A DNA stretch of 64,000 bases from a virus (lineage: Duplodnaviria > Caudoviricetes). The DNA lies in IMG/VR virus record IMGVR_UViG_3300031994_000023, positions 64,001 through 128,000 of that record; one strand, given 5' to 3'. The translations under genes and the position numbers were made by a program. Below the pieces are notes generated by a model. The model saw only the letters and a list, made by a program, of their open reading frames with translations. It was not told the DNA's origin and did not search any database. Shown piece by piece: positions 10,736-28,071 of the stretch (position 1 is its first letter; each line of letters starts with the position of its first letter).

Positions 10736-12229
10736 CTATTTTTTTCTTAATCTTCTACCGTACACGTCACGGTCACTCATTCTTGAGGTGTACCCTTTTT
10801 TTGATTCTTCTTGAAAACCATCGGATTCTGGATTGATGGCTTTGCTATAGGATTTAATGGATTCTTTCTGGGCTTTTTTGATGTTGCCCATCAAATCAGA
10901 TTTAAATGAAGAGAATTGTTCTTCGAAGATGGATTCAACCATTTCTTTGGTTGCATATTTTTCTATGGGTTCTACCTGTTCATCTTCTTCCTTTTTTTCT
11001 GGTTCTTCTGGTTTTGGTGGTGTTTCTTTGAAACTTCCTGCGAATTCGTAATCATCAAGGGCTTCTTGTATTCCATCAAACACCATCTGCTCAATTTCTT
11101 CTGCGTATCTTTGTAATGTGGTTCTGATGAGGTCTTCTACATCTTCTTGTGCAAGGTATAATACTGATTTTTCAGATTCTTTATTTACACATTTTTTAGA
11201 TTCTTTGCCTTTGCATTTTTCTGATTCTTTTCCACCACATTTCTCTGATTCTTCTTCGGTTACTTTTTCTTTCTGTGCTTCTTTAACTTTACCTTGGCTT
11301 GTTCCACCATTTCCGCCATTGTCTGTTGGCATTTCGGTTTCGGTTTCGTTTTCTCCTTCTCCAGTTGTGGTTGTGGTGTCTCCACTTGTAGTTGTGGTGT
11401 CTCCACCAGTGGTTGTAGAGTCTCCACCGTTACCTCCAGAACCTTCAGTTCCGTCATCTTCTTTTTTAGATTCTTCTGGTGATACTTCTTCTAATTCTTC
11501 AAGGTCTGCTTCACTTTTGTATTCTTTTACACTTTCTTCTTCTACATCTAATCCATCAATGAAAGTGTTTAATTCTGCTTTTATTTTATCTTTAAGACTC
11601 ATGTTTGATTTTGTGTTCTCCTTTAATTTATCTTTGTTTACAATAAGACAAGATTTCCGACAAAATTTGGCTCCGTAAACGCAAGGTTGACGAACTAATG
11701 AAACTGTGAAAGCAACGGGGTCTTTGACATCTTTCATAAGTATTCTTTTAGGTGTTTTTGTGAATGCCTTTTCGCTTTCAATTACACTTTCAGGGATTAG
11801 TAATTCTTTTTGACTTACATAATCCATGATGGCATTGGCGTGACTTCTTTCTTTCACAGTCACACTAAAACCAGTTAGTTGTCCCTTATTGTATAACTTC
11901 ATTGCCTCAGGGTCGGTAATTTTTACGCTAATTATCCATGTCCCTTGGGGGTATTTTCGATTAAATCCATCTAATCCTTTGAGGTATAGTTCATCTTCAC
12001 TGATGTAACTGTTAAGTAGTTTTCCTCTTTGTATTGGTTTCTGATGGTTTATTAATCTTTTAGTGTATTCATGTTGTAAATCTATTATTTTATACTTTTG
12101 AAAACTATCTGCTAACAGTTTTATTTTGTCTGGTGGAAGTACCTCTTCACCGTATTGATATTCACAATCAGGTGCGTATGGTATCAAGACAGGTGCTGTT
12201 ACTACAGGGTATTGTTTTATTTCTGTCAA
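10736..12229 (-). CDS. XkdF-like prohead serine protease fused to an acidic scaffold region
   Basis: VTAPVLIP..PD, IDLQHEY, PQGTWIISVKI, KGQLTGFSV motifs; long acidic low-complexity C-terminus. Confidence 0.85.
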   Translation of the reverse strand: MTEIKQYPVVTAPVLIPYAPDCEYQYGEEVLPPDKIKLLADSFQKYKIIDLQHEYTKRLINHQKPIQRGKLLNSYISEDELYLKGLDGFNRKYPQGTWIISVKITDPEAMKLYNKGQLTGFSVTVKERSHANAIMDYVSQKELLIPESVIESEKAFTKTPKRILMKDVKDPVAFTVSLVRQPCVYGAKFCRKSCLIVNKDKLKENTKSNMSLKDKIKAELNTFIDGLDVEEESVKEYKSEADLEELEEVSPEESKKEDDGTEGSGGNGGDSTTTGGDTTTTSGDTTTTTGEGENETETEMPTDNGGNGGTSQGKVKEAQKEKVTEEESEKCGGKESEKCKGKESKKCVNKESEKSVLYLAQEDVEDLIRTTLQRYAEEIEQMVFDGIQEALDDYEFAGSFKETPPKPEEPEKKEEDEQVEPIEKYATKEMVESIFEEQFSSFKSDLMGNIKKAQKESIKSYSKAINPESDGFQEESKKGYTSRMSDRDVYGRRLRKK

Positions 12230-12292: not shown

Positions 12293-12892
12293 TTATTCAA
12301 TGTCAACTATGGTCACAGTATACTCTTTATTCTCTGACCAATGAGTTCTAAACCATTTTTCTTTATGTATGTCTTTTACTTTGAATGATTCCGTGTTAAC
12401 CCATGATTCTCCTTCATTAACTGCGTAATCAGTCCATCGAGTGATATTAAAATGTCCTACACGGTTGTTTGTTCTGAAAACAACAAGTTCATCATCAGAG
12501 TCGAACATGAAACTAGCATAGTCTTTTGTTTGTTCTATATGTCTACTGAACGCTTTTAATGGTTTGTTGAAATGGATTGGTTCTCCTTTTTTTATGTCTT
12601 CTTTGGGTACGGATGTTCCCATTATTTCCACCCTCGTCAAATGCTCCAAGTCATGTTCCATATGTGATAACACATATTCCATTTCTTCTTCACCTAATAA
12701 ATCTGATGGTGCAGTACTGTGTCCATGAGCGTCGGGGACGGTTATGTGGTCTTGCCACATTTGGATGATGTGAGTTAAATCTTGGAAGAATTGTGGGGTA
12801 TGTCCTTCAAGAGGTATTTTGTCACCATTTTTCAAGGTAAATGTTTCGTCTGAGAATAATGTGTTCAGAGTGCTGTTTCCTTTACTTGCCAT
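12293..12892 (-). CDS. MASK protein 1: ADP-ribosyltransferase-like (ExE)
   Basis: MASKGNSTLNT start; LTRVE...GEPIHFNKPLKAFS...LVVF...NEGESWV. Confidence 0.55.
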   Translation of the reverse strand: MASKGNSTLNTLFSDETFTLKNGDKIPLEGHTPQFFQDLTHIIQMWQDHITVPDAHGHSTAPSDLLGEEEMEYVLSHMEHDLEHLTRVEIMGTSVPKEDIKKGEPIHFNKPLKAFSRHIEQTKDYASFMFDSDDELVVFRTNNRVGHFNITRWTDYAVNEGESWVNTESFKVKDIHKEKWFRTHWSENKEYTVTIVDIE

Positions 12893-12918
12893 GGTTTTTT
12901 CCACATTATCTTTTTTTT

Positions 12919-13554
12919 TTATTCTAATTCAACAAAAGTAACATTGTAATCAAAATTTGCACCTAATATTTCTTCAAGTTCTCTCATTAATTTTGGGTTT
13001 TCACGGTCTTTGTAATTTTTATTATACACTGCGGTTACTTTGTATTCTCTACGACAATCCAACCACAACTCTTGCTCATGTTTCACCACTGACCAATCAT
13101 ATGTTTTAAAGTAGGATGGATTTCCTTTCACTTTGAATATGACTAACTCATCATCTGGTTGAAATGTTGATTCCATGTAATCTTGAGTGCCATGTTCAGT
13201 TTCACTAAACGCTTTTAATGGTTTGTTAAATTTGATGTTTTTTCCAATTACAAAATCTTCCTTAGGGACACTTGTGCCAATTTGTTCTACTCGAGTAATA
13301 CTTTCACGGTCATTTTGCATGTGTTCATAAACATATTTTAATTGGTCGTCGGTTAAGATGTCGGAGGGTGCAGCACTGTGTCCGAATGCATCGGGGACAT
13401 CTTCGTGAAGAATCCATCTGCCTATCGCTTCATATAAATCTGGATGTTTTTTAATTTGTTCTCGTATGTGTTCGGGGAAATAACTTTCAACACCTTGGAT
13501 TATGTTATCTGAGTCATATGTGTTTAGTACGGTTTCACTGTATTTACTTGCCAT
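12919..13554 (-). CDS. MASK protein 2: ADP-ribosyltransferase-like (ExE), paralog of protein 1
   Basis: MASKYSETVLNT; ITRVE...IGKNIKFNKPLKAFS...LVIFKVKG...HEQELWL. Confidence 0.55.
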   Translation of the reverse strand: MASKYSETVLNTYDSDNIIQGVESYFPEHIREQIKKHPDLYEAIGRWILHEDVPDAFGHSAAPSDILTDDQLKYVYEHMQNDRESITRVEQIGTSVPKEDFVIGKNIKFNKPLKAFSETEHGTQDYMESTFQPDDELVIFKVKGNPSYFKTYDWSVVKHEQELWLDCRREYKVTAVYNKNYKDRENPKLMRELEEILGANFDYNVTFVELE

Positions 13555-13565
13555 ATCTTTTTGAT

Positions 13566-14168
13566 TCACTTATCTTCTTGTTCAATATATATCAAGCGGA
13601 TGGGTTTGTTATTGAGTATTTTTTGGTCATCCTCATCCCTAAACAAGGATGGTGGAAAATAATCTTTGTATTTTGTGGTTTCAATTTTTTTTACAACCCA
13701 GTTTTCTGAAGGTACAAATGTTTCTGATTGATGTGCAAAGGGAACACCATCCAATGGGAAATTAGGTGTTCCTTTGGGTGCAACTAGAATATCTAATGTT
13801 GGATACTGCTCAAAATACTTCTTTCTCGAACCTAAAACCCAATCGTCAACTACAAAATTTTGGAAGTTTTGTTTGTCATAACTGAATGATGACATGTCTC
13901 TACGAGTGAAGGGAACTGTATCCCCTACTTGTAGCTGGGAATATTTGGTAGGTGAACGATTTCTTAATTCTTCCATGGTAGGGTAAGTGAAACGGTATAA
14001 TTCATCTTTAGAAGGTTCCATTAATTCTCTCATCAAAGGGATTAATTCTTTAAAGTGTTCATTAAAGTTGGTACCATATTCATACACCCATTTATCAAAT
14101 TCCCAGTGTTCCTCCACAAATGCTTCACTTGCCTCCGAGTTCAGTGTAGTGTTTCCTTTACTTGCCAT
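13566..14168 (-). CDS. MASK protein 3: ADP-ribosyltransferase-like (R-S-QxE)
   Basis: MASKGNTTLNS; LYRF...VGDTVPF...MSSFS...ILVAPKGT...HQSETFV. Confidence 0.65.
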   Translation of the reverse strand: MASKGNTTLNSEASEAFVEEHWEFDKWVYEYGTNFNEHFKELIPLMRELMEPSKDELYRFTYPTMEELRNRSPTKYSQLQVGDTVPFTRRDMSSFSYDKQNFQNFVVDDWVLGSRKKYFEQYPTLDILVAPKGTPNFPLDGVPFAHQSETFVPSENWVVKKIETTKYKDYFPPSLFRDEDDQKILNNKPIRLIYIEQEDK

Positions 14169-14249
14169 ATACTTGAATTTTTTTTTGATAATGAAATGAA
14201 TATTTTTATATACTCTTGTTTTGTAATATATTATTAGGTGAAATAGAAT

Positions 14250-14549
14250 TTGACAACTTTAAAATATTTTTTAGACAGATTTAAGTGTAAGAATAGATTT
14301 GCAGATAACGTGGAAGCAATTGAGTTGGGTGATGTACAATTTGATGACATGTCATATGGTGACAATGTTATATTGTTCACAAACTCTGAAAACAATGAGG
14401 TGGTTCTGAGAATTGACTTAGACCGAAGAGACATATATCTTTACACGGTTATAAACGAAAAAGAAGTGAAAGTATCTCGTTGGTTAATCCATAACCAAGA
14501 CACACAAAAACTCACAATAACAGTACCAAGAGAACGAGTGAACATGTAA
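14250..14549 (+). CDS. Small plus-strand protein convergent on a peptidase (candidate immunity)
   Basis: Upstream TTTATATA and AGGTGA SD; N-term MTTLKYFLDRF resembles the other convergent genes. Confidence 0.6.
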   Translation: MTTLKYFLDRFKCKNRFADNVEAIELGDVQFDDMSYGDNVILFTNSENNEVVLRIDLDRRDIYLYTVINEKEVKVSRWLIHNQDTQKLTITVPRERVNM

Positions 14550-14609
14550 AAAAAAAGACCCGACCCCACCACACACCATCCACCCCCACCCCATGATACA
14601 AAGAGGGGA

Positions 14610-15449
14610 TTATCCTTTTTTTCTATCGAATTCATAAAAGAAACCACGAACAACTTCAAAAACATCTTCATCTGTTTTACAATCAAGAATAGTGTTCGCA
14701 ACCCTATCCAGATTCGGATTCATCCTCTTCCATTGAGCATAGGATACGGGCTCAGAATACTGATTACCATTTGGATTAGATACTACTGCCATACTAGGAT
14801 TTGTTCTATGCATCGCAACAATCTTAAAGGCATCTGCCCAATTCTCAGAATACCTATTTTCATAATTTAATTTACTATTTTTATCGAATGTGGCGTTAGC
14901 ATAACCACTTGATTTCTCAGTTTCAGATAGGTTCTTAAACCAATCCATACTAGGAATGTTTCTGAGTTTAGGATGGTCTTCCATACAATGTGCCATCTCA
15001 TGATATAATGTGTTTTGGGGCGAATTATAATTTTGATAAAACAATGATTTATTCCCAATGTACACATCATGAGTTCCATAAGGAACCGACCCATACTCTG
15101 CTAGATAATTCTGAGGGTCATAATCAAAGATAATTTTATCTACATTTTTCTTCATCAAATCTGGTGCCTCATTAACATACCGTAACAGGTCTTCCATAGT
15201 GTATGGTACCTCACCATCATTTTTTCGTTGATAGTATTCTAGATTGTCAAGGTAGTGTGTTGTGAATTCTACAGGTATGCCATCAGGTGATGTGAGGTAT
15301 ATTTTTTTTTCGTCATATGAATTTATTATGTAATTTTGTTGTTTACTCGCTTCGAGCAATAGTTTTGCAGAATTCTTTTTTATGTAGGGATTGTCTAAGA
15401 TGTTAGTTGTAGTTATTGTGTTTAAGATGGTACTTCCTTTACTAGACAT
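14610..15449 (-). CDS. MASK protein 4 (MSSK): zincin metallopeptidase, lethal-factor-like
   Basis: HEMAH...SGYA...SENWADAF. Confidence 0.7.
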   Translation of the reverse strand: MSSKGSTILNTITTTNILDNPYIKKNSAKLLLEASKQQNYIINSYDEKKIYLTSPDGIPVEFTTHYLDNLEYYQRKNDGEVPYTMEDLLRYVNEAPDLMKKNVDKIIFDYDPQNYLAEYGSVPYGTHDVYIGNKSLFYQNYNSPQNTLYHEMAHCMEDHPKLRNIPSMDWFKNLSETEKSSGYANATFDKNSKLNYENRYSENWADAFKIVAMHRTNPSMAVVSNPNGNQYSEPVSYAQWKRMNPNLDRVANTILDCKTDEDVFEVVRGFFYEFDRKKG

Positions 15450-15485
15450 ACTGTTCTTCGTGTTCTCATTTTTCTAGAGGAGTTT

Positions 15486-15878
15486 TTATAATGTGATTCC
15501 TTGTTCTTCTAATTCTTGTATTCTCTGGTTGAGTTCTCTCATTTCATCCCTCACCCTGTTATGTGCTTCCCTTGTTTCATCATATATTCTTTGTCTTCGT
15601 CCGAGTGTTGTGAGTAGTGGTGCGGATTCTCCTCTTACCTGTATCTGTGCCTTGATTTTTTCTAGGTCTTCTCTTGCACCCGCTAATTCGGCTCGGAGGA
15701 CGTTCATTTCAACACCTAAATCCCATACTCTTGCCCATTTATCGTTTAACTCTTGATGAAGTGCTTCTGTTTCAGATGGAATTAACCCTAATTTTCTATT
15801 TAATTCAACAAAATTCAGTTCACTTTCACCAGTTGTTTCTGTTCCATTTCCAGAGTTTCCTGTTCCTTTACTTGCCAT
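15486..15878 (-). CDS. MASK protein 5: coiled-coil
   Basis: MASKGTGNSG; heptad-rich body. Confidence 0.65.
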   Translation of the reverse strand: MASKGTGNSGNGTETTGESELNFVELNRKLGLIPSETEALHQELNDKWARVWDLGVEMNVLRAELAGAREDLEKIKAQIQVRGESAPLLTTLGRRQRIYDETREAHNRVRDEMRELNQRIQELEEQGITL

Positions 15879-15947
15879 GATTTTTTTTTTCCTTTATTTT
15901 CAAAAAACTAAATTTATATAAAAAATATGGGGAATATATTAAGTATT

Positions 15948-16067
15948 ATGACTATTCAAATCAAAGACATAATCAAAAAATATCATACAAACATTGAATT
16001 AACTAAAATGACACCTGAACTTCAAAATGTGGATATATTCCAAGATAATGTTAATGTAAATAATTAA
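15948..16067 (+). pseudogene. 39-aa truncated member of the convergent small-gene family
   Basis: MTIQIKDIIKKYHTNIELTKMTPELQNVDIFQDNVNVNN*; TTTATATA at 15913-15920. Confidence 0.4.
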
Positions 16068-16077
16068 TCACTCGTGG

Positions 16078-16563
16078 TTATAAATTGTATTGTGGATGAA
16101 TAATACTTCTTGCTCTTGATGTTAAGTCTAAATATTCTTTTAATTCGGGTGTGTCATTAATATTTTCTACTTCAAAGGAGCCGTCAAGTTTTTCTTGTAA
16201 ACTGTCCAGTTTACTTCTTGCTTCATTTAATAATGATTTTGTCTCATTATATACTGAGTTATTATATTCTGTGGTGATTAAGGGATGTTCTGCCACCCAC
16301 TGTGTATCTTGTTGTTGTCCTACTGTCCATTGATTTGTATTTTGTTGTCGTTGTAAATCCTGTTCTAAGAAATATAATTCATTTCGAAGGTTATTAACTC
16401 TTTCTTGTTGTTGTGTGTTGTTTCTTACGTTAGCCATATATTCTCCCCATGTGGATTCGGTTTGTGCACCACCTTCACTGTTGAGATATATTGCATAGTC
16501 ATCTATTCCTTCGTCGGTGTATGATGTTCCTCCACCTCCACCGCCTGTTCCTTTACTTGCCAT
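16078..16563 (-). CDS. MASK protein 6 (GIDDY leader), helical body
   Basis: MASKGTGGGGGGTSYTDEGIDDYAIYLNSE. Confidence 0.7.
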   Translation of the reverse strand: MASKGTGGGGGGTSYTDEGIDDYAIYLNSEGGAQTESTWGEYMANVRNNTQQQERVNNLRNELYFLEQDLQRQQNTNQWTVGQQQDTQWVAEHPLITTEYNNSVYNETKSLLNEARSKLDSLQEKLDGSFEVENINDTPELKEYLDLTSRARSIIHPQYNL

Positions 16564-16567
16564 GTTA

Positions 16568-17542
16568 TCATTTTATCTTTTTTAAATCTTTGAAGATTTG
16601 TTCTGCTTCCTCTCTTGTTTTACAATCCCATAGTCTGTTCCCCAATTTTGCAGATTCGGGGAATTCTTTCTCCCAACTATTATAATCCATTAGTTTCACA
16701 TGGTTTCCATTATATTCTGCATAAGTATCGGTAATATAATAACGGTTACCTACTCGTATGCGGGCATCGTCGTATCCGAGCCTATGAGAACCCACAACTT
16801 TCATGATTTCTGCAAGAGATTCTGTGTAATATCTAGGATTCGGTACGCCACGTACCATTTCACCACCGCTCTCATAGTTATATGTGTATGTTCCAGCATA
16901 AGTGGACACATTTTGTTTTTGTGTTTTCATTAATCTTCGGAAAGAGGGGTTGGAGGATAATGTAAATTCGTTTTGGTGTCCTCCATTATAGTCAAAGTTA
17001 TGGGTTATTTCATGAATAATAACACCCCTAACATCCCATGCATCATCTTTTTCATAGGATAAAAATGTTTTTTTGATTTCAACAATTCCATCTCTTTCTG
17101 GTCCATCATAATAACTACTCCCAGTTCTACCACTTAGTTTTACTTCTTTTAATGTCTCTTTGAACAAACTTGGTATTTTATCGATAGTTGTTAAGCAGTC
17201 TTCGAGGGTGGCTTGAGAGTGGGAACTCATACTTTCTTGTCTAAACCCTAATTTACAGTCTACAATGTATGTGCCAGTGTCTGTTTTTCCTTCGAATATT
17301 ACTGTTCCATCACTTTTAATTGTTTGAATAACCATATTCGCACTATTTGCTGATGAAAGAACATTCTGAATGTCTTCTTCTGAGAACTTTTTATATTTTC
17401 TCATTTTTTCGGCTTGTTCTTCATTGTAATTAAGTTCGGATGGTGTGAGAGTATGGTCGTCTTGTAAAATAGGGGAGAAATTAGTTTGATAGTCATCTAA
17501 TGTTAACTGGGTGTTTAATGTTATGTTACCTTTGCTCGCCAT
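16568..17542 (-). CDS. MASK protein 7: zincin metallopeptidase
   Basis: MASKGNITLNT; HEITH...VSTYA...TESLAE. Confidence 0.7.
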   Translation of the reverse strand: MASKGNITLNTQLTLDDYQTNFSPILQDDHTLTPSELNYNEEQAEKMRKYKKFSEEDIQNVLSSANSANMVIQTIKSDGTVIFEGKTDTGTYIVDCKLGFRQESMSSHSQATLEDCLTTIDKIPSLFKETLKEVKLSGRTGSSYYDGPERDGIVEIKKTFLSYEKDDAWDVRGVIIHEITHNFDYNGGHQNEFTLSSNPSFRRLMKTQKQNVSTYAGTYTYNYESGGEMVRGVPNPRYYTESLAEIMKVVGSHRLGYDDARIRVGNRYYITDTYAEYNGNHVKLMDYNSWEKEFPESAKLGNRLWDCKTREEAEQIFKDLKKIK

Positions 17543-17553
17543 GTTCCTTTTAT

Positions 17554-19284
17554 TTAGTCATTACTCCAGTATCCTTTGAAGTCGTTGGGATTTCTTATGT
17601 TTTTTATAACATCTGTGTTTTCACGATGGTCTTTTTCCTCTTCTATGGTTGGTACATTTGGTATCATTCCATAATTTTTGGTTTCATCAAGGTTGTTAGG
17701 GTCTACTGGACTTTCCATACTCTCAGGGTTAATGCCTAGTTGTGCCATTTGTAATTTTGTGGATATGTCATTCATCCACATTTGTTGCTGTTGTCTTTGT
17801 GTGTCAAGACTGTGTGATTCTTGACTCATTCCTGCATTGGCAAACATTAAACTTAATGGTGTTCCTCCGACAAAATATTCATCAAGGTATGGGTTGTCAG
17901 GGTCTGCCACTGCCCCTAATGGTTTTCCAAGGCTTTCACTTATTTGTCTTGGAGTCATCGCTCCCAAACTGAAAAGTATGCTCGCACTTTGAAGGTCACG
18001 GGCGTAGTCTCTTTTGTCAATATCTTCTATTTTGAATAACCATGAGAGGTATTTTTCCCCGTGTAAACGATAATATTCGTCACTGAGTATTTGGTTTACT
18101 ATGTCTTCATTTTTCTTTTTAATTGGTTGAATGATACTTGTGTTGTAAATGTTGGATGATTCTACACTAGTGTTTCCACCGAGACTCCCATTTATTGCCA
18201 TACCTATCCTGTATGGTGGAACTCCATGTGCACTTAGGACTTCGTCACGGTTGTCCGCTCGGTATAATCTGAAACTTGCCTCGTTACTTCCTCCTGCGTT
18301 TAGTTTTGTGAAACTTACATGCACGTTTCCTTCGGTGGATGGTACGAGCATGGCGAAGGCACTGTGAGGATTTTTAACGGCTTGTTCCATGTTTTCCTTA
18401 ATTTTGTATTTAAGGGTTTTTGTTTCATCATAGTCTGGGTCTTCTTCGTCCATCCCTGGGTCGAAGTCTCCTGTGACTGTTACTGCATATGAGGGCATTC
18501 CATAATTTTGGAAGAAACTACTGTTAAATCGGCTTCTTCCAAGGTCTCCGAAGATGGCTCTTATGACTGGTACTACTTTTGCACTTCCATATACTGGTGC
18601 GTGTGGTGCATAGTTTACTCCCCATATTAATTCGTTTGCTCTTTCGCTTGGGTCTAAACTGTTGTATTCGACTTGTTCTCCAGTGTCACAGTCGACATCG
18701 AATTTGACTCCATCGGGTGTGGTGTTTTTTCCATATAATATGAACCATCTATGTTTTTTTCCAACTCTTTGTAATACTCGTACTCCGTCTCGGTGTACTT
18801 TCATGTTGAATATGGGTGTGGGGTTAAGGTCGACTATGTCGCTTTCACTTGTGTTCCTTCTGAGAATTTCCATGCATCCACACCCGAGAGCTCTTTTATC
18901 ATAACAGAATCTGTATAATGCCGTGTTTATGGGTGTGTATAATTGTAGTAGGAAATCTTCTATGAATTGTTTCTGGTTTTTTGCTTCGTTAGATTCGTCT
19001 TCCACTTGGTTTCGTGGGACTAAACTGTACCCATATCCACTGGCGTCTTCCGCTACGACTTCGCAACATCTTCTATGGTATGTGTTGTTGTCTAATAATT
19101 CGCAGAGTCTTCTTAAATTATATTGGGGTCGTTTAAATTCGGCGTAATCGTATCCGTCATCATCGACTGCCTTCGTTCTTGCACGTGCTTCGTCCTCTTT
19201 GATAACATACCTGTCTAAGACACTTTTTTCTATTACTTCCCAGTCATTGTTTTTTTGGGTAACTACAAATTGTTCTATTGCCAT
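17554..19284 (-). CDS. Portal protein (PBSX-like)
   Basis: FFQNYGMPSY, EASF..YR..NRDEVLSAHGVPPYRIG...SLGG motifs. Confidence 0.9.
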   Translation of the reverse strand: MAIEQFVVTQKNNDWEVIEKSVLDRYVIKEDEARARTKAVDDDGYDYAEFKRPQYNLRRLCELLDNNTYHRRCCEVVAEDASGYGYSLVPRNQVEDESNEAKNQKQFIEDFLLQLYTPINTALYRFCYDKRALGCGCMEILRRNTSESDIVDLNPTPIFNMKVHRDGVRVLQRVGKKHRWFILYGKNTTPDGVKFDVDCDTGEQVEYNSLDPSERANELIWGVNYAPHAPVYGSAKVVPVIRAIFGDLGRSRFNSSFFQNYGMPSYAVTVTGDFDPGMDEEDPDYDETKTLKYKIKENMEQAVKNPHSAFAMLVPSTEGNVHVSFTKLNAGGSNEASFRLYRADNRDEVLSAHGVPPYRIGMAINGSLGGNTSVESSNIYNTSIIQPIKKKNEDIVNQILSDEYYRLHGEKYLSWLFKIEDIDKRDYARDLQSASILFSLGAMTPRQISESLGKPLGAVADPDNPYLDEYFVGGTPLSLMFANAGMSQESHSLDTQRQQQQMWMNDISTKLQMAQLGINPESMESPVDPNNLDETKNYGMIPNVPTIEEEKDHRENTDVIKNIRNPNDFKGYWSND

Positions 19285-19377
19285 GGTTATCTAGTTTAAT
19301 AGTATATATATGATAAAGTTTATAAGTAAAAAATATGATTAGATTCTCTTTTTTTATATAGATGAGGTGATTTGTTA

Positions 19378-19701
19378 ATGGTTAAAATAAAAGAATTAAT
19401 TAGTGAAACGGGCATTGATGTGAATGTTACAGATGCACTGTTGGAGTTGGAACCTATTAAAAAGTTCAAACTATTAAAATATGATAAAAGTAATATACAT
19501 GGACACAGATTCAAAGGAATTAGCAGTGAAGAGGGTGAAGAATACCGAGTAGTGATTGAAGTAAACGAACACTTTCAATCAATAACCCTAATAGAATACA
19601 AAGAAAAAGTAATTAAAAACAGATGGAACAAGGATGGAATATGGGACAACCCCCAACTACATTACATGCCAACACAAAACGAACTAAAACCTCACCCATA
19701 A
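19378..19701 (+). CDS. Small plus-strand protein convergent on a peptidase (candidate immunity)
   Basis: GAGGTGAT SD before the ATG; MVKIKELISETGIDVNVTDALLELE; 3' end overlaps the peptidase stop. Confidence 0.65.
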   Translation: MVKIKELISETGIDVNVTDALLELEPIKKFKLLKYDKSNIHGHRFKGISSEEGEEYRVVIEVNEHFQSITLIEYKEKVIKNRWNKDGIWDNPQLHYMPTQNELKPHP

Positions 19702-20681
19702 CGCTCCAAGTACAAAGCGTCCATCTTATCCAACCACTCACGAGGAGTTTTAGACTCACGAAACAAACGAGCCACATGGTCTAACTCAGGCTCCAACCTA
19801 ACATGCTCCTCATACGAAATATCCCCCGCAATAGTATACTGTGAACCATTAACATAACCCACCTTACCAGAACCAGGAGTAGAATCCTGAGCCTTTGCAC
19901 GAGTAGGATTAGAAATAGCAGTACCCAGAGGCATAACTGAACATGCAAGATTCTCAGTATGATACATTTCCCTCATTTCTTGTTCAGGATTATTTTTAAA
20001 CCCTCTTGCATACTCTGACGCACTATGCTCCTCTGACAACTTCTTAAAATAAGGATGGTCAGAAAGTGTAGTGTAAGATTCGCCACTTAAATAATCTACT
20101 TTATGAGTTCCTTCATGTTCCATCACATTCTTATAACCACTACTAGCCCATGGGTCTTTTTTATCAAAAATACTGAAAGAATCATAAATTATGACATCAT
20201 TTCCAGGGTCGTAATGTCCACTCTCTCCTTGGTCGTCACCATAAAATATCTGTGCTCCACCATAATACTTGAAAATTTCGGGGTAATCCTTGGCGTAATA
20301 TTTAAAAAACTGTTCGGGTGTAACAATTAATTCTCCGTTGTGCATTGCAGAGAGTACACTTGAATCTAAGAGTAATGCTTGATTATCAAAGTATGCCACA
20401 AATTCTTCATCTTCCATATAAAATTGGTCATAACCTAATTCTTTTAGAGTTTTCAGAAGTTTTGTTGCATCTTCTTCATTGAGGCTCGTGTTCTCAGTTA
20501 AGTATTCTATTGTTTCCGCTTCTTCTTGTTTTGTTGATTCTCTCATCATCATAACCCTTTCGTTGGGATGATGTTCACTACTACTTATCCAGTCACCATA
20601 TGAGTCTATGTATTTGTTGTAATCTTCCAACTCCTTGGTGGAACTTAAACTCATCAGTGATGTGTTTCCTTTACTTGCCAT
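19692..20681 (-). CDS. MASK protein 8: zincin metallopeptidase
   Basis: HEGTH...LSDHPYF...ASEYA...TENLA. Confidence 0.7.
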   Translation of the reverse strand: MASKGNTSLMSLSSTKELEDYNKYIDSYGDWISSSEHHPNERVMMMRESTKQEEAETIEYLTENTSLNEEDATKLLKTLKELGYDQFYMEDEEFVAYFDNQALLLDSSVLSAMHNGELIVTPEQFFKYYAKDYPEIFKYYGGAQIFYGDDQGESGHYDPGNDVIIYDSFSIFDKKDPWASSGYKNVMEHEGTHKVDYLSGESYTTLSDHPYFKKLSEEHSASEYARGFKNNPEQEMREMYHTENLACSVMPLGTAISNPTRAKAQDSTPGSGKVGYVNGSQYTIAGDISYEEHVRLEPELDHVARLFRESKTPREWLDKMDALYLERYG

Positions 20682-20857
20682 AAAACCTTTTTTTTTATGA
20701 TTCTTTTATTTGTAAATTCTCTCTCTCTTTTAATGAAAAACGTGTAAAAATTCCAAAAACACTCATCATTTGTGTGCCAAAATAACACCGTCCATACTCC
20801 ATTTTTCAACAGGGGACTTAATTAATTATATACTTCTTAAACAACATACAAGAATAC

Positions 20858-21166
20858 ATGACCAAACTAAAAAACATACTTCAAAAATTTAATTTAAATC
20901 CTGAGTTAACAGAAGCATTATTTGAGTTAGATTTTGTTGATATTTATGATAATTACCAGAATGAAACTGTAGATGGCAACAAGTTCCTTGTGTTAAGAGG
21001 TACGACCACCACACCAGAGGGGGAAATATACCCTCAAGAATTGGTTATTGATGAACAAAACCAAAAAGTAGTGGCATACGGTTATCCATTCAATGACACA
21101 AAATATGAGAAAGCACCTATTTTTTATCAGGAATATGATAAAAATGGTGAAATTATAGGAATATAA
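20858..21166 (+). CDS. Small plus-strand protein convergent on a peptidase (candidate immunity)
   Basis: TTATATA about 26 nt upstream (leaderless); MTKLKNILQKFNLNPELTEALFELD. Confidence 0.65.
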   Translation: MTKLKNILQKFNLNPELTEALFELDFVDIYDNYQNETVDGNKFLVLRGTTTTPEGEIYPQELVIDEQNQKVVAYGYPFNDTKYEKAPIFYQEYDKNGEIIGI

Positions 21167-21207
21167 AAAAAAGAGTACAGTATTCTTTTCTCCCTATTTT
21201 TTTTTAT

Positions 21208-22083
21208 TTATTTGAGTATTTGTGGTGTGGGCTCTGTTGGTTCTAAATATGTTTGTGCATAGAGTTTAGGGTTTTCTATAAATTCGCCTGCTAATTTTAT
21301 CATTTGTTTGTTTTCATCTTTTTTTGCCCAAGTCTTGTATGGCATAAGACCTTCTTTTGTAGGTACAATTATGTTTTCACCATGTTTTTTGGCTAATTGA
21401 ACATATGCTCCTACTTCTGCCAAGTTTTCTGCCCTTTTTCTCCAATCCGTAGACCTTGGGTCAATTGATACTGCATATGCATATTCTGTTGGTGTTTTAC
21501 CATCAGACGCTTCTTTCCACGCTTTGTTCTTAGAGAAAAAGCCTCGCACACTATTACTACTCCGGTATGCCCAGTCAAGAGAATGTATTGACTCATGATT
21601 CAAAGAATATTCTAAACTTTGTGGACTGTTCTTTGAGTGTAGTAAATTTCCAGCAGTGATTATGATTACGTTGGCACTTGGAACGAATTGTCCGAGAACT
21701 TCCCTACCATTTGGATTATATTTTGGTCCAGTGAATGTTATTTGGTTAACATGTCCTTTAATGTTAGGATTTAAGTTTGTATAATACTCCATAACATCCC
21801 TCAAAGTGTATCGTCCATCAGGTAAATTGTCATTTAATCCGAACCTTGAATTAGTAAGAAATGCTCCTCTAAATACCAATCTTTCGTTAGGTGCATTAGG
21901 GTCAGAGTTTGATAGGATGAGAGAATCTATTTTTTTATCATAGGTTGCGTTGAACCCATATTCTTTGGCTACTGTTTCAATGTATTTTATTTGATTGTCC
22001 ATTAAGTAACCCATTTGGTTGAGGTTTTTAATTTCAACGGAGTCTGTGGATATTGCGTTTAGTGAAGAGTATTTACTTGCCAT
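21208..22083 (-). CDS. MASK protein 9: zincin metallopeptidase
   Basis: HESIH...PTEYA...AENLAE. Confidence 0.7.
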   Translation of the reverse strand: MASKYSSLNAISTDSVEIKNLNQMGYLMDNQIKYIETVAKEYGFNATYDKKIDSLILSNSDPNAPNERLVFRGAFLTNSRFGLNDNLPDGRYTLRDVMEYYTNLNPNIKGHVNQITFTGPKYNPNGREVLGQFVPSANVIIITAGNLLHSKNSPQSLEYSLNHESIHSLDWAYRSSNSVRGFFSKNKAWKEASDGKTPTEYAYAVSIDPRSTDWRKRAENLAEVGAYVQLAKKHGENIIVPTKEGLMPYKTWAKKDENKQMIKLAGEFIENPKLYAQTYLEPTEPTPQILK

Positions 22084-22130
22084 AATCCCTTTTTTATGTT
22101 AATCCTGTTTGTCGTTTTATACTTTTTTTT

Positions 22131-22697
22131 TTATTTGTATCTTTCACTGACTAGTGTGTCCATTGCTGTTTGTGCACTATAATATCTGTCAAAGAATTCT
22201 TCTAGGTACCCTTGGTTTCCGAGATATTCTATTTGTCGTTCTAAGTCTCTGTTGATTCGTTCATTGTTTAAACCTCTGGCTTGTATTGTTTCCTGCATTG
22301 CCTTTGAGGATATTATGGTGTTTAATCTGTTTTGAACATCTCGTCCTCTTGATAATGTACCCATGAGTTCGGAGTAGGCTTGTTCTAGTTGCTCCGTTGG
22401 TTCTCTCAGTTGATTAAATGGGTAATTTTCTGTTTCAATATTATGTACGAGTTGTCTTGCCATTGACACTCTTTGTCTTTCGAGGTCATCTAGTTTTTGG
22501 GTTACATTATCTATTATTTCATCTGTGTCTTGCAGTAAGTGTTCTCGACTTCCGAAGGCACTTTCATTAGTTTGTGTTCCTGTTTCTGTTTCAGTTAATT
22601 CTTCTCCTGTGAGTGGGTCTGTGTTGTGCCAGTTTCCTTCACCATCTATGTATCCTACTCCCATTTGAATATTACTTCCACCATCTTTACTAGCCAT
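22131..22697 (-). CDS. MASK protein 10: helical/coiled-coil
   Basis: MASKDGGS start. Confidence 0.65.
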   Translation of the reverse strand: MASKDGGSNIQMGVGYIDGEGNWHNTDPLTGEELTETETGTQTNESAFGSREHLLQDTDEIIDNVTQKLDDLERQRVSMARQLVHNIETENYPFNQLREPTEQLEQAYSELMGTLSRGRDVQNRLNTIISSKAMQETIQARGLNNERINRDLERQIEYLGNQGYLEEFFDRYYSAQTAMDTLVSERYK

Positions 22698-22852
22698 TAT
22701 TTTATTATTCTCCTATTATATCTCTTTTTTTTGTGCCACATTGTTAGTTTGTGGCACGGAATTTAATAGTTTTTTTTCTCTGAAAAAAAAAAGAATTCAT
22801 TACAATAATTAATAAAAAATTATATCATTTATTAAAAACAAAAAAGATAATT

Positions 22853-23185
22853 ATGACAACAATAAATGATATTTTTAAACAATTCGGTTTAGACTGCCAT
22901 CTTTGTGAAACATTAAAAAAACACACACTAAAATATAACCCTACAATAACAGATTACAATCATGAAAAAAACCCTCAAACAAACAAAGCAATATATGAGA
23001 GATATTCATTTACTGGAACCTGTAACAAAGAAGGAACACCATGTGACATAAAATTAAACATAATGGTATATGACAACAATACCAAATTACATTATCGTGT
23101 AGAAGATAACAGTCGCTTCAAATCACCATTAAACGAGGGCATAACCATAGACTGTGACGGAAACAAAGGCTACGACCTAGGATAA
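22853..23185 (+). CDS. Small plus-strand protein convergent on a peptidase (candidate immunity)
   Basis: MTTINDIFKQFGLD; AT-rich TATA-like upstream region. Confidence 0.6.
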   Translation: MTTINDIFKQFGLDCHLCETLKKHTLKYNPTITDYNHEKNPQTNKAIYERYSFTGTCNKEGTPCDIKLNIMVYDNNTKLHYRVEDNSRFKSPLNEGITIDCDGNKGYDLG

Positions 23186-23264
23186 AAAAAACCCATCCTA
23201 CACCCCAACTTCTTCACCAAACTCTCAATTCTTTTTTTTCCACAAAAAACAATAAACACTCCGT

Positions 23265-24212
23265 TTATAACTTGCTATCCATGAATGCCACCACTTCATC
23301 AACAGAATTTGCATTATACACAACATCCGCCAACTCTGCCAACTCCTTATGAGACTTTCTCCAATCACCATAAGGCATGTCATTACCTGGATTAGAAGGG
23401 TCTTCAATCATTGCAAGATGTCGTGTACTCTTATCTGACCAATATCTCATAGGCATAACCGCTTCCGCCAAGTTTTCACAATAATATTTCCTATTCTCAT
23501 CAGGGTCAGATGAATTTTTATAACTTAAACTATACCCCGAAGCTGCACTTTTATCCGAAATTTTCATGAAATAAGGATGATTTGAGATTATTCCACCACC
23601 ATTAAGTGCACCTTTTCCTCCGAAATCCAATCTATGCACATGCTCATGTAACATTGTATGTCCTAAATCATAACTAGTACCTTGACCTATTTGGAACAAT
23701 GGTGTAACACTTATATAAATCTCATTGTCTTCTGTGTAATAGTTTTGGTCAGAATATGCGAATATTACTTTTCCACCATTTGCATGGAATAAATCTGGTT
23801 GATTATTTATTTCATCTAAGATTGATGAAAAACGGTATGCTGAATCGAATGGGTTGATTGGTATTTCATCTTCCACAAATTCTAGGTATCTGTCAGATAT
23901 GAAATATATTTGATTGTCTTGTCGTAATGTTATTCCATTTATTCCTTCATGTTCGTATTCTGGTAATATTTCGAATCCTGCATTTTGTATGTCATAGTAT
24001 AAGTCGTAGTATGCGTCAATGTCAAGTGTTTCTTCGTCAACCGTTTTGCTTTTTTCTGCCAGAAAATCTTCGACATCATCTACTGATTCCATATTATAGT
24101 ATTCATCTAATGAAGGGTCGTATGTTTTTTCTTGTTCGTCGAATGTTTCTTCGTATTCTTCCTCTGTCTCAGAAACGGTTGTTGTGGAACCACCACCATA
24201 TTTACTTGCCAT
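23265..24212 (-). CDS. MASK protein 11: zincin metallopeptidase
   Basis: HEHVHRLDF...ISNHPYF...ASGYS...CENLAEAVMPMRY. Confidence 0.7.
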   Translation of the reverse strand: MASKYGGGSTTTVSETEEEYEETFDEQEKTYDPSLDEYYNMESVDDVEDFLAEKSKTVDEETLDIDAYYDLYYDIQNAGFEILPEYEHEGINGITLRQDNQIYFISDRYLEFVEDEIPINPFDSAYRFSSILDEINNQPDLFHANGGKVIFAYSDQNYYTEDNEIYISVTPLFQIGQGTSYDLGHTMLHEHVHRLDFGGKGALNGGGIISNHPYFMKISDKSAASGYSLSYKNSSDPDENRKYYCENLAEAVMPMRYWSDKSTRHLAMIEDPSNPGNDMPYGDWRKSHKELAELADVVYNANSVDEVVAFMDSKL

Positions 24213-24255
24213 TTTTTTTATGTTCCTTCCGTTAAAGTTTTATATTTTTTTTTGT

Positions 24256-25212
24256 CTAAAAGTATTCATCCATATATTCATCTTTTAAGTGTTGTGGATA
24301 TGATTCCCATTTTTTGTCCAAGAATGACACTATCTCATCTAATGAATTAGAAGAATAAACTTTCTCTGCAACCTCTGCTAATTCCGTGTGTGTTTTCCTC
24401 CAGTTCCCATAGGGTATGTCTTCTCCTGTGTCAGGGTCACTAATCATAGCCATATGTCTTGTAGATTTATTCGCATAATATCTCATAGGCATAACAGATT
24501 CCGCCAAATTCTCTCCAAAGTAATTTTGCCAATCTAATGGATTATCACTTTCTTTGTAAGATTTACTGTATGCCGATGCAGGACTGCTATTTGAAATTGC
24601 CCTAAAATATGGATGTCCAGATATAAGTCCTTCACGTTGTTGTTTTCCTTGTTCAAAATCAAGCCTATGTATATGTTCATGAAGAATAGTTTGCCCTATT
24701 GAACCAGAAGTTCCTTTTTTATCATTGTCGAGCATGGTTGTACTGAGAGTAATTTCATTACTATAAGGGTCATAATAATTTTGGAAGGTGTCTTCTAAAC
24801 GTACAAGACCACCCATTGACTTAATTAATGGAGGATGTGAATCAAACTCTGCTAGAATATCTTTTAAAGAGTAATCTGTCTGATAATCAAGGGTTCCTCT
24901 CTTTTCGTTAAGGTAGTCCTTGTATTCATCAGATAAAAAATAAACATTATTATCTTTTCGGAACATTATCCCATCAACACCATCATAGGAAAATGTTGGA
25001 AGAACTTCATAACTGTTTGCAGTTAATGCGTCATAAATCTGAGCTAATTCTTGTTTAATTTCTGGTTCATCCACTCCCATTTCTTCCATTTTGGTGTTTA
25101 TAAAATCTTCTTTCCCCATTTCTTTCATATCATAATATGAAGATAGTGAAGGGTCACGGAGATTCAATGTACTCTCCGATGAAAGTAGAATAGAACTATA
25201 TTTACTTGCCAT
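24256..25212 (-). CDS. MASK protein 12: zincin metallopeptidase, close paralog of protein 11
   Basis: HEHIHRLDF...ISGHPYF...ASAYS...GENLAESVMPMRY. Confidence 0.7.
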   Translation of the reverse strand: MASKYSSILLSSESTLNLRDPSLSSYYDMKEMGKEDFINTKMEEMGVDEPEIKQELAQIYDALTANSYEVLPTFSYDGVDGIMFRKDNNVYFLSDEYKDYLNEKRGTLDYQTDYSLKDILAEFDSHPPLIKSMGGLVRLEDTFQNYYDPYSNEITLSTTMLDNDKKGTSGSIGQTILHEHIHRLDFEQGKQQREGLISGHPYFRAISNSSPASAYSKSYKESDNPLDWQNYFGENLAESVMPMRYYANKSTRHMAMISDPDTGEDIPYGNWRKTHTELAEVAEKVYSSNSLDEIVSFLDKKWESYPQHLKDEYMDEYF

Positions 25213-25248
25213 TGTTTTTTTTTATAGTGTCTCTTTTAAAATTTACTC

Positions 25249-25839
25249 TTATGCCTCTTCAATATAAATTAAGCGTACTTTTTCGTTTTCCCTCAGTTCT
25301 TCATGAGTAGTATTTTTCCTGTCAAAGAAATCATAATAATTAACTGTTTTAATATCCTTAACAAGCCACCCCTCACCTTTACCGTCACCCCTCACTAAAC
25401 GTTCTGCCTGACCATATTCTTCTTGATAATAGTCAAGAGAAAACATGGGAGTACCTTTCGGTGCGATGAATATATTGTAGGGAGCATTGTTTAATTGTCT
25501 GTATCGGGGGTTTCTGAATATTTCAACAACACCCTCTTGAAACGAAGAGAAATCTTCACTAAACGATTTAAGTGTTCCTGTGAAGAATACGGAATCTCCA
25601 ATTTTCAAGTTATCATGTTCATTTTCATACGCTTCATCTCCATAGTTTGTATTGGATGGAGTGCTAAATCTATACAATACATCTTCTGATGGTTCCATAT
25701 GGTCAAGTATATACTGTTCTTGTTCGGGGCTAAAAAGATTGCCATCACCCGAAACCCATTTATCGAATGTTTCCAGATTATCTTGGATATATTGGTCAGA
25801 TAATTGTGATTGTAGTGTCACATTGCCCTTGCTCGTCAT
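25249..25839 (-). CDS. MASK protein 13 (MTSK): ADP-ribosyltransferase-like (R-S-QxE)
   Basis: VLYRF...IGDSVFF...LKSFS...IFIAPKGT...YGQAERLV; paralog of protein 3. Confidence 0.65.
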   Translation of the reverse strand: MTSKGNVTLQSQLSDQYIQDNLETFDKWVSGDGNLFSPEQEQYILDHMEPSEDVLYRFSTPSNTNYGDEAYENEHDNLKIGDSVFFTGTLKSFSEDFSSFQEGVVEIFRNPRYRQLNNAPYNIFIAPKGTPMFSLDYYQEEYGQAERLVRGDGKGEGWLVKDIKTVNYYDFFDRKNTTHEELRENEKVRLIYIEEA

Positions 25840-25930: not shown

Positions 25931-27451
25931 TTACATTATAATTTTTGTTCGTTTATGAGTCCATTGTCGAGCACTGCCGGTGAGACTATCCACAATGTCA
26001 TCACGTTCACCTTCCACACCCGTGAAACTAATTAATTGTTCAATCATCTTATTATTCCATGGGGCACGAACGAATTTAACACAACGACTTTCTGCCAAAT
26101 TTTCCAAAGCGAAACTACGAATATTCTTTGCACCACGCACTTTATCACCACGAATATTCCATAACTTAAGACGAGGATGATTTGCAAAACTGTTAATAAG
26201 AATTCGACTACCACTACCAGGCTCTTCCTCAATCCTTATTCTCACATGTCTACCATCCTTCAATGCAATTCTCATAAATGTTTCATTAACCATTTTCGGA
26301 GTGAAATTCCCATTTACAAGGTCGAGAACATAGAGTGTTTCGCCATCATACGCAGTTAACACACCACTAGTTTCATCACCTTCAGGTTTATAGTTTGCCT
26401 TGGTTTTCTTGTTAGCTGCGAAATCCCAGTATCTCATCCGAGGTATTCCTTCGGGTACTTCATCTTTTTCTATTATGCATGTAGGCACCACTCCATCTTC
26501 ATCGTAGAACCATTCTCTTCGGAACACATATCCTTGTCTTACGGTAGGGTTGCCTTGATATACTGCGTTGAAGAGGTAAGAACCCATACTTCTCTTGGCT
26601 TCCATTAACACATTAATATCCCTTTGTTCTTCCCACAAGACTTCTCCTTCTTTTCTTCCTAGAAGGTCACGAGAAGGGTCTTCACATATTGCGGGGAAGT
26701 TAACATCAACCCATACTTCTTGAGGTATTGCCCCACCTTTCCTTAAAATCTCTAATGCCTCTTTAGCATCAATTGTTGGCTCATTTCGTTGAATGATTCC
26801 CTGCAAATCATTGATATGTAAACGTTGTGCGATTATGAGCATTATGGGTGGTAGTCCATTACTACGTTTTTGTAAACGAGTTTTTGCAGTTGCCTCAAAC
26901 CATGACCTTAATTTATCTTGCAATACAGGACTTTCCGCTTCGGCAATGTTTTTAATAGGGTCGTCAATTATGAAGAGCCCCGCACCGAAACCGAGGATAG
27001 AACCGGCAGCACCTACACTTAACATTTGTCCTTCAAATGGTTTTTGCATGTGAAACTTGTTTTTTGCCTTACTATCTGTTGCAAGTCCCGCTTTAAGAAG
27101 TGTTTGGTCACTATAATAGTTAAGAATGTCTTTTACTTCTCCTCCGAATTCACTGGCTAAACCCTGTGAATAAGAGGATAAAATCACCTGCTCATTTGGG
27201 AAGTTTGCAAGGAAATATGAACAAAATATTTTACTTATGAGTGTGGATTTTCCGTGTCGTGGTGGTACGGAGAGCATGAGTTTGGAGACTTTACCTTGGA
27301 TGGCATAATAAAGAAATTCTATGATTATTTTGTCAAAGTCTCTTGGTTTCCATGTTCCATTGGTTATTAATTTACCCCACATTGCAATATTTATGGAGGC
27401 AGGGTTGTACAAATCGTTAGGTAATTTTTTATCTATTTCTGTTTCGGTCAT
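25931..27451 (-). CDS. terL: Terminase large subunit
   Basis: Walker A PPRHGKS, Walker B FIIDDPIK, nuclease RYWDFA and DDIVDSL. Confidence 0.93.
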   Translation of the reverse strand: MTETEIDKKLPNDLYNPASINIAMWGKLITNGTWKPRDFDKIIIEFLYYAIQGKVSKLMLSVPPRHGKSTLISKIFCSYFLANFPNEQVILSSYSQGLASEFGGEVKDILNYYSDQTLLKAGLATDSKAKNKFHMQKPFEGQMLSVGAAGSILGFGAGLFIIDDPIKNIAEAESPVLQDKLRSWFEATAKTRLQKRSNGLPPIMLIIAQRLHINDLQGIIQRNEPTIDAKEALEILRKGGAIPQEVWVDVNFPAICEDPSRDLLGRKEGEVLWEEQRDINVLMEAKRSMGSYLFNAVYQGNPTVRQGYVFRREWFYDEDGVVPTCIIEKDEVPEGIPRMRYWDFAANKKTKANYKPEGDETSGVLTAYDGETLYVLDLVNGNFTPKMVNETFMRIALKDGRHVRIRIEEEPGSGSRILINSFANHPRLKLWNIRGDKVRGAKNIRSFALENLAESRCVKFVRAPWNNKMIEQLISFTGVEGERDDIVDSLTGSARQWTHKRTKIIM

Positions 27452-27555: not shown

Positions 27556-28071
27556 TTATCTGTCTTCGTATCCGTCACGTAACCAACCATATGCTGTCAC
27601 CCTATCACTATCCGGATGGTCTCTTAGATATTGGTACATGTCTTGGAGGTTCTGTTCGACATGTTGTTGAACATTTTGTTGATAGTACCTTTCAAATTGT
27701 GCGTATGATTTGAAAGCATGTTGGTATGGAAGATATTCTGCATCATACAGTTGGTGTAATCTGTCACGAGGATAATTTAAACCTTCTATACGACCTAGCT
27801 GTTCGGGATTAAACCTGTTTCTCTGAACATCAACAGTTAAATATTGTTCTAATTCTCTGTCAATTTCACCTTTGGTCATGTATCTACTGACTGGTGTGAG
27901 GTCTATTGTTTCACCATCTACTTCTACGGTTGTGGATGGATTATTCCATCTTTCTGCTCTTGCAGGGTTTGTGTCTGTTGCAACACTATTCAAATATGTT
28001 GGGTAGTCGTCTATTCCTGTGTCTTCATAGGAGGCTCCTCCACCACCCCCGCCTTCTCCTTTACTAGCCAT
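27556..28071 (-). CDS. MASK protein 14 (GIDDY leader)
   Basis: MASKGEGGGGGGASYEDTGIDDYPTYLNS. Confidence 0.7.
   Translation of the reverse strand: MASKGEGGGGGGASYEDTGIDDYPTYLNSVATDTNPARAERWNNPSTTVEVDGETIDLTPVSRYMTKGEIDRELEQYLTVDVQRNRFNPEQLGRIEGLNYPRDRLHQLYDAEYLPYQHAFKSYAQFERYYQQNVQQHVEQNLQDMYQYLRDHPDSDRVTAYGWLRDGYEDR

Follow-up and report, generated by a model that had tools for sequence, protein, structure and literature searches.

Why would a tailed virus carry, among the genes that build its head, four small genes whose products look like ADP-ribosyltransferases (ARTs) with two different catalytic signatures? The question is raised by a stretch of 64,000 nucleotides (the window) that spans positions 64,001 to 128,000 of the virus record IMGVR_UViG_3300031994_000023, a linear viral contig of 141,779 bp with a CheckV completeness of 92%. 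The four genes lie on the minus strand between 12293 and 25839 of the window and form one pair with the motif Glu-x-Glu (ExE), here called ART-E1 and ART-E2, and one pair with Gln-x-Glu (QxE), ART-Q1 and ART-Q2. Our data lean toward a reading in which they encode small, single-domain ARTs of two clades and two chemistries that would be packaged into the virion and injected into the next cell.

ART-E1 (12293 to 12892, minus strand; 199 aa) has the motifs LTR (R87), KAFS (S116), and EGE (E160/E162), and ART-E2 (12919 to 13554, minus strand; 211 aa) has ITR (R88), KAFS (S117), and EQE (E160/E162). In the other pair, ART-Q1 (13566 to 14168, minus strand; 200 aa) has LYR (R59), SSFS (S94-F-S96), VAPKGT, and QSE (Q147/E149), and ART-Q2 (25249 to 25839, minus strand; 196 aa) has LYR (R57), KSFS (S94), IAPKGT, and QAE (Q144/E146). 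ART-E1 and ART-E2 are 37% identical, and the identity within each type is 36 to 37%. These translations agree with a preliminary description of the DNA, which had read LYR, [SK]SFS, [IV]APKGT, and QxE in the genes at 13566 and 25249 and [LI]TR, KAFS, and ExE in those at 12293 and 12919; the division into two pairs that it drew from them is kept in orthologues from other samples and matches the phylogeny. All four of its reading frames are indeed open on the minus strand, but two of the starts, 12904 and 13569, are upstream GTG codons. The starts of ART-E1 and ART-E2 are likely the ATG codons at 12892 and 13554, because these give the N-terminal sequence MASK that is common to 22 other genes, and a database gene call (P0009, 211 aa) uses the start of ART-E2 at 13554. 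With these starts, the N-terminal peptide, hereafter the MASK tag, reads MASKGNSTLNT in ART-E1, MASKYSETVLNT in ART-E2, MASKGNTTLNS in ART-Q1, and MTSKGNVTLQS in ART-Q2.

Are the proteins ARTs? The preliminary description had proposed structure prediction as a check, and prediction returned an ART fold with R-S-E (Arg-Ser-Glu) ARTs as best matches. Template-free AlphaFold (AF2) models reached a predicted local distance difference test (pLDDT) score of 83.4 and a predicted template modeling (pTM) score of 0.83 for ART-Q1 and of 82.3 and 0.78, respectively, for ART-E2. Both models have four N-terminal helices and a split-sheet core of the kind that binds nicotinamide adenine dinucleotide (NAD), as in the structures of C3, VIP2, iota, Tre1, and ModB. 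The top Foldseek matches in the PDB were R-S-E ARTs (Certhrax, Plx2A, C3, CDTa, iota Ia, VIP2, Vis, C2-I, and Tre1), with E values of 5e-6 to 1e-5. An exhaustive structural search over 48,161 chains had ART-fold domains in its first 23 places, among them the ART-like domain of anthrax lethal factor, which is catalytically dead, and unrelated folds scored 3.4 or less. Structural neighbors in the ESM Atlas were clusters of PF03496, Mod_ADP_RT, and PF01129, as well as fusions of ARTs with MuF and portal proteins, and matches in BFVD were phage ARTs, including ModB and Alt-type models annotated as "RNA polymerase ADP-ribosyltransferase".

Closer inspection of the models placed the motifs where R-S-E enzymes have them. 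The Arg lies on a predicted strand (57 to 60 in ART-Q1, with R59; 85 to 91 in ART-E2). In ART-Q1, S94-F-S96 closes strand 92 to 96, which is followed by helix 99 to 111, and E149 opens strand 149 to 153 after a loop of lower confidence, at the position of the ADP-ribosylating turn-turn (ARTT) motif; in ART-E2, E162 opens strand 162 to 166. The middle motif is [SA]-F-S, in which F and the last S are invariant in the 13 aligned family members. The published ARTT pattern is X-X-aromatic-X-X-[EQ]-X-E (PMC7827354); ART-Q1 and most family members fit it. The narrower form of C3-like, Asn-specific ARTs, X-X-aromatic-X-X-Q-X-E, fits ART-Q1 (VPFAHQSE) and P0005, an orthologue of it; ART-Q2 (QEEYGQAE) has its aromatic residue one position away, and two further sequences (P0006 and P0007) have Met. 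In the predicted fold, the strand-1 Arg, the variant S-x-S, and [EQ]-x-E, the models thus correspond to the R-S-E class, and the four proteins very probably share the ART fold and common descent, with the triad R-S-[EQ]xE in canonical positions.

The sequences of the family point in the same direction. Alignment of the ExE pair with the QxE pair by hhalign (95.3%, E 2e-8) covered the full length and brought LYR into register with LTR, SFS with AFS, PKGT with VKGN, and QxE with ExE, so the two pairs are homologous. Across a family alignment of 13 sequences, which share 13 to 64% identity with the first, the only invariant residues after Met1 are W27, R59, G82, F95, S96, and E149, which include all three residues of the triad (Arg, Ser, and catalytic Glu). 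Chance matches of short patterns were considered as a source of the R, S, and E motifs and rejected, since the residues are invariant in the family and lie on the canonical strands. Searched with the family hidden Markov model (HMM), the 141,779-bp genome yielded these four genes and no others (ART-E1 with E 9e-63), and about a dozen relatives were found by a word-indexed search of 5.8 billion proteins together with an HMM search of 1.84 billion representatives. By sequence, this appears to be one rare and very divergent family, found so far only in viruses related to those of Methanobacteriales. When its profile was compared with a seven-sequence alignment of T4 ModA and ModB relatives, hhalign gave a moderate probability of 83.5% (E 8.3e-6, 112 columns) and paired R59 with R73 of ModB, S-F-S with S99-F-T, and Q147/E149 with E171/E173. 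The match supports shared ancestry, with a probability below what membership in the same family would need.

The genes are real and constrained, as indicated by their strain variants. The block of ART-E1, ART-E2, and ART-Q1 was found in sheep-gut sequencing runs, from which the record probably derives, and also in runs of independent studies, from goat gut and elsewhere, with contigs from four runs differing by about 3% from the window; no RNA run was among the public runs listed. Among the 40 best supported of 71 differences in goat-gut strains, 27 were synonymous and 13 nonsynonymous, and none fell on the Arg, Ser, Gln, or Glu; for ART-E1 the counts were 9 and 6, with none at the triad. This tally is indicative, not a formal dN/dS, and indicates purifying selection on the three-gene block. 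Short contigs with less than 90% identity around 13654 to 13692 were judged to be other sequences, with indels and unlike flanks, and were left out. In 50,697 phage records, a blastn search with the three-gene block and a tblastn search with ART-Q1 gave no meaningful match.

Do two signatures mean two chemistries? In a maximum-likelihood tree, the QxE clade has a support of 100/98 and the MASK-tagged ExE clade of 98/98, with more distant ExE forms between them. ExE is the commoner state in the family and the QxE forms are monophyletic; the QxE clade appears to be the derived one. Both types occur in a related contig (L004), where they adjoin the XkdF protease, and at another related locus (L005) a QxE-type ART follows the terminase in the same order as ART-Q2 does here; therefore, the split predates the divergence of these viruses and was retained in them. 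The rule on which the preliminary description had relied, ExE for Arg and QxE for Asn, Cys, or guanine, has a published basis: Arg is an acceptor for EXE enzymes alone, those with QXE target Cys, Asn, or guanine or do no more than hydrolyze NAD, and arginine modification accompanies EXE in every pair of related ARTs studied (PMC3102197). The best structural neighbors of the ExE model were the Arg-specific enzymes Tre1, ExoT/S, and Ia, along with NAD:arginine ART clusters, with scores tied within about 1 Z, which lends weak support to Arg specificity. The QxE model is much closer to the protein-modifying C3/VIP2/iota group than to Scabin, DarT, or pertussis toxin, and therefore, a non-arginine protein acceptor is more likely than DNA. 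Pierisin and Scabin ADP-ribosylate guanine in DNA. That the two clades use different acceptor chemistry is, on a difference in a single residue, somewhat probable. In our model, the ExE clade (genes at 12293 and 12919) would most likely ADP-ribosylate host proteins on arginine side chains, with NAD+ as the donor, and the QxE clade (13566 and 25249) would most likely use another acceptor, either a protein side chain other than arginine or, with lower probability, nucleic acid or water.

The route by which such enzymes may reach their targets is suggested by the position of the genes. All four lie inside a head-morphogenesis block on the minus strand, which comprises the large terminase subunit (25931 to 27451; PHROG 38, E 3e-67; Pfam Terminase_6C and Terminase_6N), the portal protein (17554 to 19284; Pfam Phage_portal; PHROG 12), an XkdF-type prohead serine protease fused to an acidic, scaffold-like tail (10736 to 12229; Pfam Peptidase_S78_2, E 6e-13), and the major capsid protein (9340 to 10506; PHROG 1623, E 2e-57). 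The scaffold region of the protease protein is of low complexity. ART-Q2 is directly downstream of the large terminase gene, and ART-Q1, ART-E2, and ART-E1 stand in tandem directly upstream of the protease gene. Furthermore, the four proteins share their N-terminal peptide with other genes, as T4 Alt does: the start M[AST]SK occurs in 24 otherwise different minus-strand genes between 12293 and 42806 of the window and in no gene outside this region of the 142-kb genome. Both AF2 models show the tag as disordered. Its coding sequence begins with ATGGCAAGTAAA in most of the 24 genes, the Ser codon is AGY in 24/24 as against 39% in gene bodies, and the 15 nucleotides upstream are A-richer than for other genes; this conservation could reflect duplication of cassettes or a role at the RNA level. 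Distant homologues of the ARTs in other contigs and viruses carry MGK[NT]R instead, and there, too, unrelated neighboring genes have the same tag; in one contig (L001, 1152 to 4154), three N6_N4 methyltransferase genes alternate with MGK-tagged genes.

Because the genes lie inside the head block and the virus-wide MASK tag is disordered, we propose that the ARTs would probably be made late in infection and loaded into the procapsid, and that, on the model of T4 Alt, they would then probably be released together with the DNA into the archaeal cell infected next. In phages, about 44% of ARTs adjoin head genes or are fused to MuF or portal proteins, from which packaging was inferred (Iyer et al. 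2022, PMC9503650). We consider packaging and injection of the ARTs of this virus to be evenly balanced between true and false. The preliminary description had spoken of Alt-like host takeover, which is plausible in view of the head-module position and the shared N-terminal tag. A still more specific version, a virion-delivered kit of dual chemistry whose ExE enzymes would act on arginines of transcription, translation, or division factors and whose QxE enzymes would act on a non-arginine acceptor or nucleic acid without bacterial or eukaryotic precedent, is as a whole unlikely; if true, host takeover by ADP-ribosylation would for the first time have a mechanistic example among Archaea.

Several observations weigh against the reading of the four genes as packaged ARTs of two chemistries. 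None of the proteins has a Pfam, PHROG, or PDB sequence match to ARTs: a Pfam hmmscan at E values up to 1 returned no ART family, nor did a PHROG scan, PDB sequence searches with our profiles A1, A2, and A3 found no ART, and the PF03496 HMM had no match in the six-frame translated genome at E values up to 10. When the homologues were scanned against Pfam and PHROG, all matches were noise below threshold, such as ADPRTs_Tse2 with E 0.023 for P0012. The case for ART membership consists of structure prediction and a single profile-profile match whose probability is moderate, the TM-scores are modest (0.36 to 0.46), and the underlying alignment of 13 sequences is shallow. The middle motif is [SA]-F-S and not the classical S-T-S, and in ART-E1, ART-E2, and ART-Q2 the third position of the ARTT pattern is not occupied by the canonical aromatic residue. 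QxE enzymes can be mere NAD glycohydrolases, such as rat ART2 (PMC3102197), and the constraint on the nucleotides of the tag could mean translation or regulation instead of protein targeting. Might these, then, be catalytically dead proteins of ART fold with a structural or binding role in the head? This is hardly credible, as the Arg, Ser, and catalytic Glu are, with W27, G82, and F95, the sole invariants across 13 sequences down to 13% identity, the variant S-F-[ST] occurs in the active enzyme T4 ModB, and the strain variants spare the triad. Catalytic activity of the four proteins is probable. That the QxE clade modifies nucleic acid (DNA guanine or RNA ends) or acts as an NAD+ glycohydrolase that would drain or reshape the NAD+ pool of the host seems improbable to us; in its favor, pierisin, which modifies DNA, and rat ART2, an NADase, are QXE members of R-S-E families (PMC3102197), and the tagged ART homologues of contig L001 sit among three N6/N4 DNA methyltransferase genes, a neighborhood of DNA modification.

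Active ARTs need not be packaged. They might act late in the cytoplasm on host proteins, defense systems, or virus assembly proteins, and the MASK start would then serve translation or regulation in a set of late genes and not be a capsid address. Such a view would accommodate the nucleotide conservation of the tag and the A-richer upstream sequence, the reach of the tagged genes beyond the head block, some 15 kb past the terminase on its upstream side, where methyltransferase-like and ParB-like genes also lie, and the fact that T4 ModA and ModB, the closest sequence relatives, are not known to be virion proteins. We nevertheless find it doubtful. Spread of tagged cassettes by duplication or recombination would also conserve a short 5' end, sister viruses combine the same cargo families with another peptide, MGKNR, which fits a virus-specific protein address, and the ART genes are interleaved with those for terminase, portal, and protease. 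A role as polymorphic toxins in competition or superinfection exclusion, like the MuF-ART toxins of temperate phages, would go with immunity proteins of the producer. HMM searches of the genome for MuF, Macro, and ADP-ribosylhydrolase (ARH) domains found none, the small opposite-strand genes pair with HExxH/M91-like genes (four pairs) and not with ARTs, and ART-Q2, ART-E1, and ART-E2 have no opposite-strand partner. The genome has so far given no evidence of an integrase, which was not systematically searched for. A toxin role is therefore highly improbable.

Compared with known systems, the family is closer to T4 ModA and ModB (PF26816, Mod_ADP_RT) than to T4 Alt in size and sequence. ModA and ModB are likewise single-domain R-S-E ARTs of about 200 aa from a tailed virus, encoded by adjacent paralogues; they are the only family with a sequence-profile link, and ModB is also among the structural matches in BFVD. 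However, the identity is below 15% (13 to 14% in structural alignments), with 25% identity in the columns aligned by hhalign, and the T4 genes lie outside the head module, have no shared N-terminal tag, both encode ExE enzymes, and serve a virus of a bacterial host. They are early genes. T4 Alt has about 680 aa. Like the ARTs described here, Alt is head associated and bears a short N-terminal peptide common to unrelated head-internal proteins, the capsid targeting sequence (CTS); the CTS is cut by the gp21 protease, whereas the protease here is of the XkdF type, and packaging here is inferred. Alt is delivered with the DNA and modifies host proteins (Mullaney and Black 1996; Koch et al. 1995, as listed in PMC9958956).

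The C3 exoenzymes and the binary toxins VIP2, iota Ia, C2-I, and CDTa, as well as Certhrax (PF03496), are secreted by bacteria and aimed at eukaryotic Rho or actin, which a methanogen does not have, and they carry S-T-S in place of S-F-S. The PF03496 HMM has no match here, and by the gathering threshold the four proteins are not members of that family. Tre1, a Serratia effector of the type VI secretion system that ADP-ribosylates arginine (PDB 6dre/6drh), and ExoS/ExoT leave their producers through secretion systems; Tre1 has a cognate immunity protein, Tri1, and no such partner and no ARH or Macro domain was found in this genome. The MuF-ART toxins and polyvalent head proteins (Jamet et al. 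2017, PMC5576092; PMC9503650) resemble our case in that ART cargo, presumed to be packaged and injected, is encoded in the head block, and MuF-ART and portal-ART fusions are among the structural neighbors. Unlike these, the ARTs here are free-standing proteins of 196 to 211 aa with no room for MuF, the genome has no match to PF04233, and a tag of 4 to 11 residues takes the place of the fused head-protein domain.

Which host would the ARTs act on? The terminase is 58.5% identical to the large terminase subunit (TerL) of Methanobacterium virus Drs3, the portal protein is 43% identical to the Drs3 portal, with PhiF3, MSTV1, psiM2, and psiM100 as the next matches, and the best match of the capsid protein is from Methanobacterium virus PhiF3. 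The G+C content is 30 to 39% across the 64-kb window and 34 to 39% in the head block. Because of these matches, this is an archaeal virus, and with the G+C content and the origin from ruminant gut, its host is most probably a rumen methanogen of the Methanobacteriales, the genus being inferred. A search of the virus for pseudomurein endoisopeptidase (PF12386), a marker of the Methanobacteriales, did not find it, and scans with ART profiles A1 and A2 and with TerL revealed no relatives in IMG/VR, GTDB genomes, or JGI metagenomes and gave no provirus or spacer link to a host. At 142 kb, compared to 37 kb for Drs3, the virus is unusually large for a tailed virus of this lineage.

The idea that phage ARTs are encoded beside head genes and packaged has already been published for bacteriophages (PMC9503650), and no new principle is involved; what is new is the host domain, Archaea, and a sequence family that is recognized by neither Pfam nor PHROGs. 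For archaeal viruses, there are only passing annotations of ARTs, in two haloarchaeal tailed viruses (PMC8651126), and our literature search found no paper on viruses of methanogens together with ARTs. Little is known of how archaeal viruses reprogram their hosts, and the four genes are a concrete set for mapping targets in Methanobacteriales. The natural ExE/QxE pair in one family is useful for the study of acceptor specificity, and the proteins are suitable cargo for asking whether virus-specific tags, MASK here and MGKNR in sister viruses, are addresses for capsid loading.

Some further features of the tagged genes deserve mention. ART-Q2 begins with MTSK (25837 to 25839) and a nearly identical variant from another contig (P0008) with MASK; therefore, the second position of the tag tolerates Ala or Thr, and the gene at 15449 has Ser there. 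Seven minus-strand paralogues (16078 to 16563, 27556 to 28071, 28064 to 28540, 29453 to 29860, 33212 to 33709, 36773 to 37285, and 42282 to 42806) share a leader of MASK, a Gly-rich linker, and a block resembling SY.D.GIDDYPTYLN and differ in their C-terminal parts; one such paralogue is also present in L004. Just downstream of the portal gene, a MASK-tagged protein of 324 aa (16568 to 17542, minus strand) has a weak match to "head morphogenesis" (phrog_4728, E 4e-4) and no Pfam match to MuF; it may be a divergent MuF/gp7-like protein of the head interior. Untagged genes with N termini like those of ParB-type proteins (..YNPR..) and DNA methyltransferases (FSGIGGF), recognized by eye, occur among the tagged genes at 31749 to 33180 and 38851 to 41743. 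Some of the 24 tagged genes have weak metalloprotease-like matches. Four plus-strand open reading frames of about 100 aa with similar N termini (14250 to 14549, 19372 to 19701, 20858 to 21166, and 22853 to 23185) are each convergent with a MASK-tagged gene, and two of these partners weakly match Peptidase_M91 or SprT-like proteins. The small open reading frames, which have a clear homologue at the same place in L004 (2052 to 2342), may encode immunity or inhibitor partners of the protease-like cargo.

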